Source of the DNA: a virus
Taxonomy: Duplodnaviria > Heunggongvirae > Uroviricota > Caudoviricetes
Virus record (IMG/VR): IMGVR_UViG_2671180296_000001
Coordinates: 1-6,697 of that record
Length of the DNA: 6,697 nucleotides
Strand: one strand, 5' to 3'
The translations under genes were made by a program, and so were the position numbers. Position 1 is the stretch's first letter; the number at the start of each line of letters is the position of its first letter. Below, in pieces: positions 1-6,697 of this stretch. The notes under the pieces are model-generated. The model had not been told where the DNA came from, did no database searches, and saw only the letters and a program-made list of their open reading frames with translations.

Positions 1-752
1 TTAAGGGAAAAACCACCTCACAGTATCTGGCCTCGGTGGTGGTGGGTAACCTGCCGCCGCGCCCGTTCAATATACGGATGCGCAGGATGACGCCGGACAG
101 CACCACAGACCAGCTGCAGAACAAAACGCTCTGGTCGTCATACACCGAAATCATCGATGTGAAACAGGGCTACCCGAACACGGCACTGGTCGGCGTGCAG
201 GTGGATTCGGAGCAGTTCGGCAGCCAGCAGGTGAGCCGTAATTATCATCTGCGCGGGCGCATTCTGCAGGTGCCGTCGAACTATAACCCGCAGACGCGGC
301 AATACAGCGGTATCTGGGACGGAACGTTTAAGCCAGCATACAGCAACAACATGGCCTGGTGTCTGTGGGATATGCTGACCCATCCGCGCTACGGCATGGG
401 GAAACGTCTTGGTGCGGCGGATGTGGACAAATGGGCGCTGTATGTCATCGGCCAGCATTGCGATCAGTCGGTGCCGGACGGTTTTGGCGGCACGGAGCCG
501 CGCATCACCTGTAATGCGTACCTGACCACACAGCGCAAGGCGTGGGATGTGCTCAGTGATTTCTGCTCTGCGATGCGCTGTATGCCGGTATGGAACGGGC
601 AGACGCTGACGTTCGTGCAGGACCGACCGTCGGATAAGGTGTGGACCTATAACCGCAGTAATGTGGTGATGCCGGATGATGGTGCGCCGTTCCGCTACAG
701 CTTCAGCGCCCTGAAGGACCGCCATAATGCCGTTGAGGTGAAACTGGATTGA
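1..752 (+). CDS. J: Tail tip host-specificity protein J (lambda gpJ-like), internal segment; 5' end lies upstream of the window; frame ends at a premature TGA (750-752) after a 1-nt insertion
   Basis: Frame 0 is open from the window edge (first full codon at 3-5) and reads [76 protein letters not shown]...KDRHNAVEV, which matches the middle of lambda J as I recall it. Lambda continues ...[15 protein letters not shown]; here an AAA run at 741-743 (AA in lambda) shifts the frame. Confidence 0.85.
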
Positions 753-3241
753 CCCGAATAACGGCTGGGAGACGGCGACAGAGCTTGTGGAGGACACGCA
801 GGCCATTGCCCGTTACGGTCGTAACGTCACGAAGATGGATGCCTTTGGCTGTACCAGCCGGGGGCAGGCCACACCGCGCCGGGCTGTGGCTGATTAAAAC
901 AGAACTGCTGGAAACGCAGACCGTGGACTTCAGCGTGGGTGCCGAAGGGCTTCGCCATGTACCGGGCGATGTCATTGAAATCTGCGATGATGACTATGCC
1001 GGTATCCGCACCGGCGGGCGCGTGCTGGCGGTAAACAGCCAGACCCGGACGCTGACGCTCGACCGTGAAATCACGCTGCCATCTTCCGGCACCACGCTGA
1101 TAAGCCTGGTTGACGGGCAGGGGAGTCCGGTCAGCGTGGAGGTTCAGTCCGTCACCGACGGCGTGAAGGTGAAAGTGAGCCGTGTTCCTGATGGCGTTGC
1201 TGAATACAGCGTATGGGGGCTGAAGCTGCCGACGTTGCGCCAGCGCCTGTTCCGCTGCGTGAGTATCCGTGAGAACGACGACGGCACGTATGCCATCACT
1301 GCCGTGCAGCATGTACCGGAAAAAGAAGCCATCGTGGATAACGGGGCGCACTTTGACGGCGACCAGAGCGGCACGGTGAATGGTGTCACACCGCCAGCGG
1401 TGCAGCACCTTACCGCCGAAGTCACCGCAGACAGCGGGGAGTATCAGGTACTGGCCCGCTGGGACACGCCGAAGGTGGTGAAGGGCGTGAGCTTCATGCT
1501 TCGCCTGACCGTGGCAGCGGACGACGGCAGTGAGCGGCTGGTCAGCACAGCCCGGACGACGGAAACCACATACCGCTTCAGACAACTGGCGCTGGGGCGT
1601 TATATGCTGACGGTCCGGGCTGTAAATGCCCGGGGGCAGCAGGGTGATCCGGCGTCGGTATCGTTCCGGATTGCGGCACCGGCAGCGCCTGTCACTATTG
1701 AACTGATACCGGGGTATTTTCAGATAACGGCAGTCCCGCGTCTTGCGGTGTATGACCCGACGGTACAGTTTGAGTTCTGGTTCTCGGAAAAACGGATTGC
1801 TGATATCAGGCAGGTTGAAACCACAGCCCGCTATCTTGGCACGGCGCTGTACTGGATAGCTGCCAGTATTAATATCAGGCCGGGCCATGATTATTACTTT
1901 TATATCCGCAGTGTGAACATCGTCGGTAAATCAGCGTTTGTGGAAGCTGTCGGCCGGCCGGTTAATGATGCTGAGGTGTATCTCAATTTTTTTGAAGGGA
2001 AAATAAACAGCACCCTGCTGGGGCAGGAGCTGAACGATCGTATTAATGCCTCGGCATTGCGCAGTGAAGTTGAGCAACTGGAGGATGAGATCAATCAGCA
2101 GATAGAGAGTGATATTGCTGAAGTGACCCAAAAAATCGGGGAGACAGAAAACAGCCTCACACAGCTGGTTGCGAAAAAAAATGATGAGCTGTCACTGGGT
2201 ATATCACAGGTGAGCCAGAGAGTGGATAACGTCAGCAGCGAACTCACGCAGACGGTCAGTCAGAGTAATGAGGAGAATGCACGCCAGATAGCGCAGGTTC
2301 GCCAGTATGTGGATCAAAAAAGCAGTGAAATCATGACGACAACGGACCAGAAGCTGGGAGATCAGGAGGCCACCATCCAGCAGATACAAAAGGTTCAGAC
2401 GGACACCAGTAATAACCTGAACAGTATGTGGGCCGTGAAACTGCAGCAGATGCAGGATGGTCGCCTTTATATTGCGGGTATCGGTGCCGGTATTGAGAAC
2501 ACCCCTGACGGCATGCAGAGTCAGGTGCTGCTGGCGGCAGACAGGATTGCGATGATTAATCCTGCAAATGGCAACACAAAACCGATGTTTGTTGGTCAGG
2601 GTGATCAGATATTCATGAATGAAGTGTTCCTGAAATATCTGACGGCTCCCACCATTACCAGCGGCGGTAATCCTCCTGCATTTTCCCTGACACCGGACGG
2701 AAAGCTGACCGCTAAAAATGCCGATATCAGCGGTAACGTGAATGCGAACTCCGGGACGCTCAACAACGTCACGATAAATGAGAACTGTCAGATTAAGGGG
2801 AAACTGTCAGCCAATCAGATTGAAGGCGATATTGTCAAAACGGTGGGAAAATCCTTTCCGAGAAATGGCAGTTATGCCAGCGGTACAATAACGGTCACTG
2901 TGTACGATGACCAGGCTTTTGACCGTCAGATAGTAATCCCACCCGTTCTGTTTCGCGGTGGTAAGCATGAAAACTTTAACAGCAACAACCAACAGTCATA
3001 CTGGTACTCAACCTGTAAGCTGCAGGTGCTGAAGAACGGACAGGAAATCTTTCAGCAACCCGCGACGGATGTCAGCAGGGTATTTTCATCTGTCATCGAT
3101 ATGCCTGCCGGACACGGGCATGTCACCCTGACTTTCAATGTTTCTTCATATGGTGCTAATAACTGGACGCCAACGACCAGTATCAGCGACCTTCTTGTTG
3201 TCGTGATGAAGAAATCAACAGCCGGTATCAGTATCAGCTGA
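749..3241 (+). CDS. J: Host-specificity protein J, continuation and C-terminal receptor-binding region (frameshift-interrupted; the ORF-track start at 749 is a TTG and not a real start)
   Basis: From about 872 this frame reads [45 protein letters not shown]...[47 protein letters not shown]..., near-colinear with lambda J. Between 748 and 870 the J-homologous reading ([41 protein letters not shown]) is in the third frame. After about residue [13 protein letters not shown] the protein diverges into a long coiled-coil and a different C-terminal domain, ending at TGA 3239-3241. Confidence 0.85.
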
Positions 3242-3258
3242 ATTTTATAACCCCAATA

Positions 3259-3286
3259 CGGGCGCCAGAAATGGCGCTTTTTTATT
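3259..3286 (+). terminator. Rho-independent terminator downstream of J
   Basis: Stem GCGCC (3262-3266) pairs with GGCGC (3273-3277) around loop AGAAAT, followed by TTTTTT (3278-3283), 18 nt after the J stop. Confidence 0.65.
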
Positions 3287-3307
3287 GCAGAAAAGCGAGA
3301 GGTAATT

Positions 3308-3907
3308 ATGCGTAAATTATGTGCTGTTATTCTGTCTGCAGTAGTCTGGCTGGTCGCCGCTGGTACGCCAGCGAGTGCAGCAGAGCATCAGTCCACACTA
3401 AGCGGCGGGTATCTTCAGTCCCATACTGATATGCCCGGAAACGATGACCTGAAGGGCATTAACGTGAAATACCGTTATGAGTTTACGGACACGCTGGGGC
3501 TGGTGACGTCATTCAGCTATGCAGGAGACAAGAATCGCCAGCTGACCCGTTACAGTGATACCCGCTGGCATGAAGATTCCGTTCGTAACCGCTGGTTCAG
3601 CGTAATGGCGGGGCCGTCTGTGCGCGTGAATGAATGGTTCAGCGCGTATGCGATGGCGGGTGTGGCTTACAGCCGTGTGTCGACTTTCTCCGGGGATTAT
3701 CTCCGCGTAACTGACAACAAGGGGAAAACGCACGATGTGCTGACCGGAAGTGATGACGGTCGCCACAGCAACACGTCTCTGGCGTGGGGGGCTGGCGTGC
3801 AGTTTAACCCGACCGAATCCGTGGCCATTGATATTGCTTATGAAGGCTCCGGCAGTGGTGACTGGCGCACTGACGGTTTCATCGTGGGTGTCGGTTATAA
3901 ATTCTGA
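3308..3907 (+). CDS. lom: Lom-like outer membrane protein (Ail/Lom family 8-strand beta-barrel; lambda 'moron' gene)
   Basis: ATG at 3308 is preceded by GAGAGG (3297-3302). The N-terminus MRKLCAVILSAVVWLVAAGTPASA is a signal peptide. The C-terminal half ...GINVKYRYE...SVMAGP...SAYAMAGVA...IDIAYEGSGSGDWRTDGFIVGVGYKF matches lambda Lom as I recall it, including the terminal aromatic residue typical of beta-barrel OMPs. Position directly after J is as in lambda. Confidence 0.9.
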   Translation: MRKLCAVILSAVVWLVAAGTPASAAEHQSTLSGGYLQSHTDMPGNDDLKGINVKYRYEFTDTLGLVTSFSYAGDKNRQLTRYSDTRWHEDSVRNRWFSVMAGPSVRVNEWFSAYAMAGVAYSRVSTFSGDYLRVTDNKGKTHDVLTGSDDGRHSNTSLAWGAGVQFNPTESVAIDIAYEGSGSGDWRTDGFIVGVGYKF

Positions 3908-3933
3908 TTAGCCAGGTAACACAGTGTTATGAC

Positions 3934-3960
3934 AGCCCGCCGGTTCAGGCGGGCTTTTTT
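3934..3960 (+). terminator. Rho-independent terminator downstream of lom
   Basis: Perfect 8-bp stem AGCCCGCC (3934-3941) / GGCGGGCT (3948-3955) with loop GGTTCA, running into a T6 tract (3955-3960). Confidence 0.8.
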
Positions 3961-3971
3961 GTGGGGTGAAT

Positions 3972-4982
3972 ATGACAGTAAAGATTTCAGGTGTCCTGAA
4001 GGACGGAGCGGGTGAGCCTGTCGTAAACTGTGCGATTGAATTGCGTGCCAGAAGAACCAGTCCGACAGTTGTGGTTAATATTGTGGCAACCTGTCTTACG
4101 GGAAGTGATGGCGGGTATACTATTAATGCTGAGCCGGGATTTTATGATGTATTTTTGTCCCGCTCAGGGCATCCTCCTGTAAAGGCGGGGGAAATTTATG
4201 TTGCACCGACAGATGAGCCGGATACGCTGAATGCTTTTCTGGATGCACCAAAGGAGGGTGATTTACGCCCTGAGGTAATGAAGCGTTTTGAGGAAATGGT
4301 AAATACCGTTGTTCGCTTGTCTGAGCAGGTGGTCAGTGACAGGGAGAGAGCAGAAACAGCGGCTGATGATGCAATCAATGCAGCAACATCTGCGGCGGTT
4401 AGTAAGGATGAGGCAGAAGAGCTAAAAAATCAGACACAGCAGAGCGCCGAAGCTGCAGCCGGAAACGCACAGCAGACCGCGCAGGATGTGGAGGCAACGG
4501 TCACCGCCCGTGATGATGCGGAACGTTTTGCGGGTGAGGCAGAAAACAGCGCACAGACATCAGGCACAGCGCGGGACGAATCAGTCGATGCCGCCGAACG
4601 TGCCCGCCTTTATCATAATGCCGCATCATCAGCTGCAACCAGCGCGGAAAATGCAGCAAATGCTGCACTCGGGCATGAAAATAACGCTGCCGAATACGCC
4701 CGACAGGCTAAAGACAGCCAGGATGCAGGTGCAGACAATGCGCAGGAAGCGAAACAGTACAGGGATGAGGCGCAGCAGATAGTTGATGACCTGAATGCAA
4801 CAAATGCCAGCACGACAGAAAAAGGTCTGGTGCAACTGTGTAGTGATACGGACAACGACAGCGATGAACTGGCTGCCACGCCAAAGGCTGTCAAAGCCGT
4901 CATGGACGAAACGAAAACAAAAAGCGCCACTGGACAGCCCGGCCTTCACCGGCACCCCAACCACCCCAACCCCACCGGATGA
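3972..4982 (+). CDS. stf: Side tail fibre protein Stf, N-terminal segment (frame 0); frame is lost near 4914-4923 and runs out of frame to TGA 4980-4982
   Basis: MTVKISGVLKDGAGEPVVNCAIELRARRTSPTVVVN... matches the lambda Stf N-terminus (MAVKISGVLKDGTGKPV...) as I recall it. The ORF-track start at 3966 is GTG; the ATG at 3972 aligns with the lambda start. An Ala/Gln/Glu-rich shaft region follows, then ...TEKGLVQLCSDTDNDSDELAATPKAVKAVMDET, the conserved Stf motif. The tail after 4923 (SATGQPGLHRHPNHPNPTG) is out-of-frame translation. Confidence 0.85.
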   Translation: MTVKISGVLKDGAGEPVVNCAIELRARRTSPTVVVNIVATCLTGSDGGYTINAEPGFYDVFLSRSGHPPVKAGEIYVAPTDEPDTLNAFLDAPKEGDLRPEVMKRFEEMVNTVVRLSEQVVSDRERAETAADDAINAATSAAVSKDEAEELKNQTQQSAEAAAGNAQQTAQDVEATVTARDDAERFAGEAENSAQTSGTARDESVDAAERARLYHNAASSAATSAENAANAALGHENNAAEYARQAKDSQDAGADNAQEAKQYRDEAQQIVDDLNATNASTTEKGLVQLCSDTDNDSDELAATPKAVKAVMDETKTKSATGQPGLHRHPNHPNPTG

Positions 4983-5346
4983 TGCCGCCGGTCTGGAAGC
5001 AGCGAACGCAGCGTTTGTGCGCAAACTGCTTGCTGCGCTGGTTGGCTCATCGCCGGAAGTTCTGGACACCCTGAACGAGCTGGCAGCGGCGCTGGGCAAT
5101 GACCCGAACTTTGCGACCTCAATGATGAATGCGCTGGCAGGCAAACAACCGCTTAATGACGTCTTAACGGCAATCAGCGCACTGACGCAACGGGCAGATA
5201 ATCTTCTGTACTTCAATACAGACGGGAATGCCTCACTGTCTCTGCTGTCAGAGAAGGGCCGCGCATTACTGGCGCATGACACGGCTGAAGCCATGCGCAC
5301 GGAGCTTGAGCTGAACGCGGCCTGCGACGATGGAACCCCAGAGTGA
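4795..5346 (+). CDS. stf: Side tail fibre protein Stf, second segment (frame 1); homology-supported only from about 4905 onward
   Basis: From about 4921 this frame reads KAPLDSPAFTGTPTTPTPPDDAAGLEAANAAFVRKLLAALVGSSPEVLDTLNELAAALGNDPNFATSMMNALAGKQPLN..., colinear with lambda Stf (KAPLDSPALTGTPTAPT...NTLNELAAALGNDPDFATTMTNALAGKQP). The ORF-track portion 4795-4900 is an overlapping out-of-frame read. Ends at TGA 5344-5346 just after a CCCC run (5336-5339). Confidence 0.75.
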   Translation: MQQMPARQKKVWCNCVVIRTTTAMNWLPRQRLSKPSWTKRKQKAPLDSPAFTGTPTTPTPPDDAAGLEAANAAFVRKLLAALVGSSPEVLDTLNELAAALGNDPNFATSMMNALAGKQPLNDVLTAISALTQRADNLLYFNTDGNASLSLLSEKGRALLAHDTAEAMRTELELNAACDDGTPE

Positions 5347-5950
5347 TATCCGTGACGCACACCGGGCAGGCTGGCCCCTGTCCGGGATGTATGGGTTTGG
5401 ACAGGCATTCACCAGAGCCGAAGCTCTGTCATTTAACGGACAGGCTGATTTCGTTATATGGCTGCAGACAGTCACACCGGGGCGTTATGCGGTCAGTATT
5501 GCGGACTCTTCCACGCTGCTGAAGGGGACCACGAAATTTAACGGTATCATTGATGTGATGTGGTCACCGTCTGATAACGACGAATCAGACACGGCGCGTA
5601 AATTCAAAACGCTGCTGTACTACAACCAGTATTACGAGGATGAGCACAACATACATTGCATGCGTTATCATTACAGTGATAACACCTGGACCGCAACATC
5701 AAACATGATTGTGTATGACGGCAACTCCCTGGCATATCTGATGTCCTCAACCGCCGGTAATGGTCCGTTCTCATATTACCAATACCCGGCACTTGGCGTG
5801 CCGATTATGGCGGTATATCAGGGAGAAAGTTTTGGTGAAAATGCTTCTCTGGGACTCGGTGATACTGTGCCGGGTTCCCGTCTTGGTCCTCTGGCCATGA
5901 GTGCACGGTTAGTGATACAGGGACATACGCATCCTCACCGCAGGTTGTGA
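5330..5950 (+). CDS. stf: Side tail fibre protein Stf, third segment (frame 2): distal, putative receptor-binding part
   Basis: Long open frame with protein-like composition (…GQAFTRAEALSFNGQADFVIWLQTVTPGRYAVSIADSSTLLKGTTKFNGIIDVMWSPSD…YQGESFGENASLGLGDTVPG). Removing one C from the CCCC run at 5336-5339 joins it in-frame to the previous segment (…AACDDGTQSDIRDAHRAGWPLSGMYG…). The last residues (…QGHTHPHRRL) look out of frame. Confidence 0.65.
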   Translation: MEPQSDIRDAHRAGWPLSGMYGFGQAFTRAEALSFNGQADFVIWLQTVTPGRYAVSIADSSTLLKGTTKFNGIIDVMWSPSDNDESDTARKFKTLLYYNQYYEDEHNIHCMRYHYSDNTWTATSNMIVYDGNSLAYLMSSTAGNGPFSYYQYPALGVPIMAVYQGESFGENASLGLGDTVPGSRLGPLAMSARLVIQGHTHPHRRL

Positions 5951-6063
5951 TTGGCGGTGCCGGTGAATACAACTTCCCCGGTCGTTACACGGCGCTTTCT
6001 GGCCTGGGTAACAATTATGGTACTCAGCGTGGCTTTATCGGTCTTTTTGTACGCATTGAGTAA
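5863..6063 (+). CDS. stf: Side tail fibre protein Stf, probable C-terminal segment (frame 1, no start codon of its own)
   Basis: Frame 1 is open from 5863 to TAA 6061-6063 and reads …TVSDTGTYASSPQVVIGGAGEYNFPGRYTALSGLGNNYGTQRGFIGLFVRIE, which is protein-like, whereas frame 2 ends in …HTHPHRRL. Adding one G to the GGG run at 5920-5922 would join the two. The next gene's RBS and ATG follow immediately. Confidence 0.5.
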   Translation, partial: YCAGFPSWSSGHECTVSDTGTYASSPQVVIGGAGEYNFPGRYTALSGLGNNYGTQRGFIGLFVRIE

Positions 6064-6077
6064 TGAGGAAATCAGGC

Positions 6078-6649
6078 ATGAAAATCAGAGCGGTGAAAGG
6101 TATCAGAAACGCACATTATCTTGAAAATGGTGCGGTTGACTGCGAGGTGTTATTTGAAGGTGAAACGAGTTCGTCCTGTATACCGCCATACAGGATGATA
6201 TGGCCCCGACAGGCCAGCATGTCTGGCAGGAGCTGCAAAGCGGGAAATGGGGCGAAATCGCCCCGTTCACCGTCACGCCGGAACTTATTGCAGCGGCAAA
6301 GGATGCCAAAAGGCGGGAAATTGAGGCATGGCGAGACAGTCAGGAAAACGTTGAGTTTATTTTCACGTTTGATGGCCGTCGTTTTGATGGCGGAAAAACC
6401 TCGCAGTCACGCCTTGCCCCCGTGGTTGCAACAGCACAGGCCGGACTGCTTCCGGAGGGTTTTTTCTGGACTGATGCGGATAATAACAACGTCGTACTGA
6501 CCAGGGAGAAACTTATTGCGCTGAACGATGCCATGATGGTGGCCATGGTGACGGAGGGTTTTAAAATCCACGAACGTCAGCGGGAGATGAAAGAAGTGTT
6601 AAACACTCTGGAGGATTTAGGTGAGATACGAGCATTTAATGTTGAGTAA
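6078..6649 (+). CDS. Small conserved prophage protein immediately downstream of stf (tail-fibre-assembly position; function unknown); interrupted by a 1-nt frameshift near 6165-6170
   Basis: RBS GAGGA (6066-6070) sits 7 nt upstream of ATG 6078. Frame 0 reads MKIRAVKGIRNAHYLENGAVDCEVLFEGET, then degenerates into Arg/Ser-rich low-complexity text. Frame 2 opens at 6164 and reads NEFVLYTAIQDDMAPTGQHVWQELQSGKWGEIAPFTVTPELIAAAKDAKRREIEAWRDSQENVEFIFTFDGRRFDGG…LGEIRAFNVE up to TAA 6647-6649. The ORF-track entries 6063-6500 and 6200-6649 are the two halves of this one gene. It does not resemble lambda Tfa as I recall it. Confidence 0.6.
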
Positions 6650-6697
6650 CGAATAGATTGCAGTGAGTGTTTTTGGTATCTGAAAAACGAAGCTCCG

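Follow-up and report, generated by a model that had tools for sequence, protein, structure and literature searches.

Gene J of the tail module carried by the stretch of viral DNA analysed here (6,697 nt, in the following called the window) is interrupted by two one-base insertions, and these most likely belong to a set of eight uncorrected one-base errors in the consensus sequence of a multi-copy lambdoid prophage. The eight indels are private to the record among the relatives compared, each measures 1 bp, they outnumber the private substitutions, and taking them out restores genes that are under constraint; a technical cause, that is, sequencing or assembly, is the most likely one, a judgement drawn from the assembled letters. 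The value of the result lies mainly in quality control, and either way it brings no new biology. An annotation that accepts the indels as they stand would list three frameshifted tail pseudogenes and count the prophage as defective; should the indels be errors, the J–lom–stf tail module is intact and the prophage may well be functional.

Megablast against phage and E. coli collections identifies the window as a lambdoid prophage tail module. Its gene order, J–lom–stf–DUF4376, was established by tblastn with the annotated proteins of relatives and by Pfam, and the order J–lom–stf is that of lambda and of many E. coli prophages. The closest full-length relative found, AP025747.1 (locus L015), is 97.7% identical over window 1–6595. 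Those nearest to it are prophages from E. coli strains associated with cattle and food, which have many lambdoid copies per genome, and the closest strains contain several near-identical copies of the lom–stf module per genome. The following features were assigned:

3–740, + strand: J segment A, in frame 3, corresponding to lambda J residues 156–401 (98–99% by tblastn with J of lambda, L002 and L003)
741–743, + strand: first J frame break, an AAA run one A longer (+1) than in any homologue
742–870, + strand: J segment B, in frame 1, 43 codons corresponding to lambda J residues 402–444 at 100% identity, inside Phage-tail_3
869–870, + strand: second J frame break, a CC run one C longer (+1) than in any homologue
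871–3241, + strand: J segment C, in frame 2, from residue 445 to the normal stop, with Ig_J, Ig_J_second, Phage_Tail_Tip and Ig_GpJ_C
3308–3907, + strand: lom, for an Ail/Lom outer-membrane beta-barrel protein, intact, 199 aa (Pfam PF06316, E=1e-121)
3972–6063, + strand: side-tail-fibre (stf-like) gene with five private 1-bp indels, 696 aa when corrected (Pfam phage_tail_N and Phage_fiber_2)
6078–6649, + strand: DUF4376 gene (Pfam) in the position of tail-fibre assembly, with a private loss of G after 6166, 190 aa when corrected

J, followed by lom and then by stf, thus occupies the operon position of gpJ. The exact Lom protein is present in many NCBI E. coli assemblies (237 blocks on record). 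Terminator-like hairpins with T runs are located 3′ of J (3260–3279) and 3′ of lom (3934–3955).

By direct reading, window 738–747 is GTGAAACTGG and window 865–875 is CAGGCCACACC. BLASTN of window 650–950 against lambda (NC_001416) returned 288/301 identities and exactly two gaps, at which the window has an additional A in an AA run and an additional C behind GG; together with all homologues compared, this bears out the two insertions, at 741–743 and 869–870, that a sequence-only reading of the window had proposed by comparison with lambda J. The same reading had J homology pass through all three forward frames, and so it does: in the three-frame translation it runs to ...RHNAVEV in the base-600 frame, continues as NWIDPNNGW...SRGQA in the 601 frame and then moves to the 602 frame, and tblastn places lambda J residues 156–401 in frame 3 (3–740), 402–444 in frame 1 (742–870) and 442 onward in frame 2. 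The ORFs as written are 36–752 and 749–3241; the N-terminal J frame ends at a TGA (750–752) and the middle frame at a TAA (895–897), and gpJ is accordingly spread over three frames in place of a single uninterrupted one. As both insertions are +1 and add up to a net +2, they do not compensate each other and a full-length J is impossible as written, in agreement with what had been claimed. Also correct was the claim that the intervening codons are perfectly conserved in the shifted frame; segment B differs from lambda by six nucleotides, all of them silent in the J frame, as its 43 codons are 100% identical to lambda J 402–444. Too strong was the description of the region as near-identical to lambda, to which identity is 96% locally (650–950) and 92.3% over window 1–2032; the corrected segment 700–910 is, however, 100% identical to E. 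coli gpJ genes.

The corrected product behaves as a member of its family. On frame-corrected J, six Pfam families pass their cut-offs (FNIII-A_GpJ, Phage-tail_3, Ig_J, Ig_J_second, Phage_Tail_Tip and Ig_GpJ_C), and lambda gpJ (NP_040600) and E. coli prophage gpJ share with it both this series and the synteny J–lom–stf. Over lambda J residues 156–444 protein identity to window J is 98–100%; what sets the window gene apart from lambda gpJ there is that, as written, it is split over three frames.

Both J insertions are absent from all of the J homologues compared (128/128). The 27-mer containing the extra A and the 23-mer representing the extra-C pattern each gave 0 exact matches in viral, genome and metagenome contig collections; the wild-type 26-mer, which served as positive control, matches at least 120 viral contigs. 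The comparison with 4,364 complete E. coli genomes covered 8,793 places, none of which scores above a copy that lacks both bases: the best E. coli matches to window 700–910 reach 99.1% over 209 record bases, which is identity bar the two gaps, and window 700–910 minus the two bases is found as an intact gpJ, at 100% identity, in up to 34 complete genomes. The lesions are therefore private to the record and absent from its close homologues, and inheritance of either J insertion by related isolates was seen in none of the records searched, among which the source lineage may be unsampled. Homologues with the AAA and CC runs in an intact frame, which the sequence-only reading had named as the case that would speak against it, were looked for and were found neither among the 128 J homologues nor in the E. 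coli genomes and contig collections. At the protein level, the exact products of ten window ORFs have no match in a collection of 15 billion proteins, and the stf fragment is likewise unrecorded there.

A single frameshift in a conserved gene is best judged against its whole neighbourhood, which in this case holds six further lesions of this type within 5.4 kb. Aligned with L015, the window shows a total of eight gaps, every one of them 1 bp long; five are insertions and three are deletions. J holds two, the side-tail-fibre gene five and DUF4376 one. Relative to L015 they are:

J: A gained at 741; C gained at 869
stf: A gained at 4919; C gained at 5321; C lost after 5355; C gained at 5375; one base lost after 5906
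DUF4376: G lost after 6166

The same eight are private also in comparison with L002 and L003; beyond J residues 156–820 the call “private” rests on about 13 relatives, and for the six indels downstream of J it carries less certainty. By tblastn, stf homology crosses frames 3, 1, 2 and 1 and DUF4376 homology frames 3 and 2; within stf, the loss after 5355 is cancelled by the gain at 5375, inside 20 nt. A ninth candidate lies at 3276, in the C run of the J–lom intergenic hairpin; it is common to L015 but not to L002 and L003 and was left uncounted as ordinary polymorphism. The lesions in J had been called either very recent or not real; the comparison supports this, and the set of eight tips the balance towards the latter.

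All that changes is run length, by ±1 nt, at several places and in several genes; seven of the eight indels are clear in this respect and the eighth is ambiguous. The changes seen are AA to AAA, C to CC, AAAA to AAAAA, CC to C, CCC to CCCC and GG to G, a pattern that under random placement has P ~1e-3 to 6e-3. The affected runs are all 1–4 nt long, and none of the 25 window runs of at least 5 nt is altered. Indel density is 1.2 per kb, a figure that holds for this 6.7-kb window only; at such a density a gene of 600 nt, such as lom, is spared about half the time. The indels are clustered: over 4,050 nt (window 870–4918) there is no private indel (P ~0.005), and three lie within 54 nt (5321–5375; P ~0.01). 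Such clustering fits local lapses in coverage or polishing, but could have some other origin; repeat copy number as its cause was set aside, the whole lom–stf module being multi-copy in the closest genomes, so that copy number has no discriminating power.

Once the eight indels are undone, J is open over 1078 aa (partial), stf over 696 aa and DUF4376 over 190 aa; none of the three contains an internal stop, and each ends at the stop codon of its relatives. Measured against L015, dN/dS is 0.12 in J, 0.37 in stf and 0.14 in DUF4376, and lom has a value of 0; judged by these ratios, the substitutions record purifying selection, which is the signature of functional genes. Bases that occur in no homologue number 0 in window 1–3960 and about 3 in 3961–6595, compared with eight private indels, a count for which a median of about 118 loci cover window 1–2000. 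Private indels are thus more numerous than private substitutions, and correcting them gives back intact genes under constraint.

In the reading preferred here, the record of this E. coli prophage tail module would retain uncorrected indels from sequencing or consensus building. Each error would miscount a short one-base run by one, and together they would make J, stf and DUF4376 resemble multiply frameshifted pseudogenes. A likely scenario starts from a consensus prone to indels, made from long reads or otherwise, which would have stayed unpolished because several near-identical prophage copies exist per genome and reads map ambiguously among them. The classic artefacts of 454, Ion Torrent and nanopore sequencing favour long runs; the affected runs here are short (1–4 nt), unlike those artefacts, and point to no particular platform. 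By eye, no Dcm or Dam motif was seen at the indel sites. Errors in long-read assemblies have been described as mainly short homopolymer indels which pseudogenise genes, with insertions being frequent at runs of length two (PMC12007338). The indel-prone assemblies of that study (Kastor) show the same 1-bp run indels as the window, private to one assembly and fragmenting genes, and close references repair them, as is the case here; what differs is that the runs affected here are short.

The main rival, real frameshifts of very recent origin, is unlikely; on that view the module would be part of a defective prophage that has been released from selection and is starting to decay. Translation of J would then reach about residue 401 and add three foreign residues before stopping, so that a functional tail tip could not form. 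The lesions are truly present in the sequence as given, and redundancy among the many lambdoid copies per genome in the closest relatives could relax selection. Most prophages of E. coli O157 Sakai have multiple genetic defects, their morphogenesis genes often being truly defective, and real lesions in such genes are common in defective lambdoid prophages of E. coli (PMC2669165). The side-tail-fibre gene of laboratory lambda is itself split: in lambda (NC_001416, 19650–21973; L004:4651–6974) it is annotated as two “tail fiber protein” genes, orf-401 and orf-314, and lambda PaPa stf is, like the stf gene of the window, a lambdoid tail-fibre gene divided by a frameshift, in its case a real one. 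The lesions of lambda PaPa stf and of the Sakai prophages are single, are shared by all copies of the strain and are experimentally confirmed, unlike those of the window, where eight lesions lie in 6.6 kb with almost no substitutions and none is common to other records.

Neutral decay would be expected to leave an excess of substitutions, dN/dS near 1, nonsense codons and larger deletions, and none of these was found: against eight frameshifts stand about 3 private substitutions, there is no nonsense codon and no deletion of more than 1 bp, and dN/dS is 0.12–0.37 for the genes affected. Even in mismatch-repair-defective E. coli, of all natural conditions the one most prone to indels, the ratio in coding sequences is about 6.0 substitutions to 0.85 small indels (PMC8510543, Table 3), and under that spectrum at least eight indels among 11 private changes have P ~6e-6. 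The natural indel rate climbs exponentially with run length (PMC8510543), but no long homopolymer of the window is altered; further, the tested lesions were found in no other record. Very improbable is a reading in which all eight indels are real and the tail module has been hit repeatedly, at short runs and nearly without substitutions, by an indel-dominated mutational process; this would imply frameshift-specific mutagenesis localised to prophage tail genes, or selection for their inactivation.

Expression of J by recoding, either through two programmed +1 ribosomal frameshifts or through transcriptional slippage, is extremely improbable. What counts in its favour is that the tail operons of lambda-like phages employ a single programmed frameshift (G/GT), and the GAT TGA C three codons past the first break, with GAGGTG upstream, bears by eye a loose resemblance to the +1 site of prfB. 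However, shifting of tRNA-Asp from GAU to AUU offers no potential for re-pairing according to codon–anticodon rules, and a programmed +1 shift at GAT TGA C was rejected for lack of both conservation and plausible tRNA re-pairing. The two-frame layout is found in 0/128 homologues, which are all single-frame here, and in none of the best matches among the 8,793 E. coli places; because a recoding site should be conserved, yet the layout is not, recoding is effectively refuted. The AAA and CC runs are, moreover, far too short for transcriptional slippage, and the six further indels of the same kind in two other genes also speak against recoding. Phase variation, in which slipped-strand events at homopolymer tracts would switch tail genes reversibly, merits next to no credence: every change is indeed one of ±1 in run length, but contingency tracts are long, typically at least 7 nt, whereas the tracts concerned are 1–4 nt in relatives, the 6–8 nt runs of the window are unchanged, and the tested J variants occur in no other record.

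Several other public records came to attention in the course of the comparison. Four IMG/VR contigs (L035:12274-12669, L108:2007-2394, L116:3959-4351 and L118:2634-3028) have 4–13 single-base gaps of their own in the corresponding 400-nt piece of J, which suggests that indel-laden copies of J exist in public collections. The loci L008, L011, L012 and L013, from recent assemblies (GCA_047262265.1, GCA_047262165.1 and GCA_047262225.1), encode a Lom identical to that of the window and have split or truncated gene calls, with J called as 263+961 aa or as 1086 aa, stf as 515+168 aa and prfC as 117+419 aa; this may reflect the same kind of assembly problem.

At the right end of the window (6597–6697), the end of DUF4376 and the bases beyond it switch from the closest relatives to another allele, which is 89% identical to strains C7, C3 and RM11911 and marks a mosaic junction. 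Within J, the C-terminal, receptor-binding third (~2030–3241) has only about 55% protein identity to lambda, and J is about 100 aa longer in the relatives of the window (1232–1233 aa) than in lambda (1132 aa). To judge from this divergence, the window J probably carries a different receptor-binding module, directed at a receptor other than LamB.
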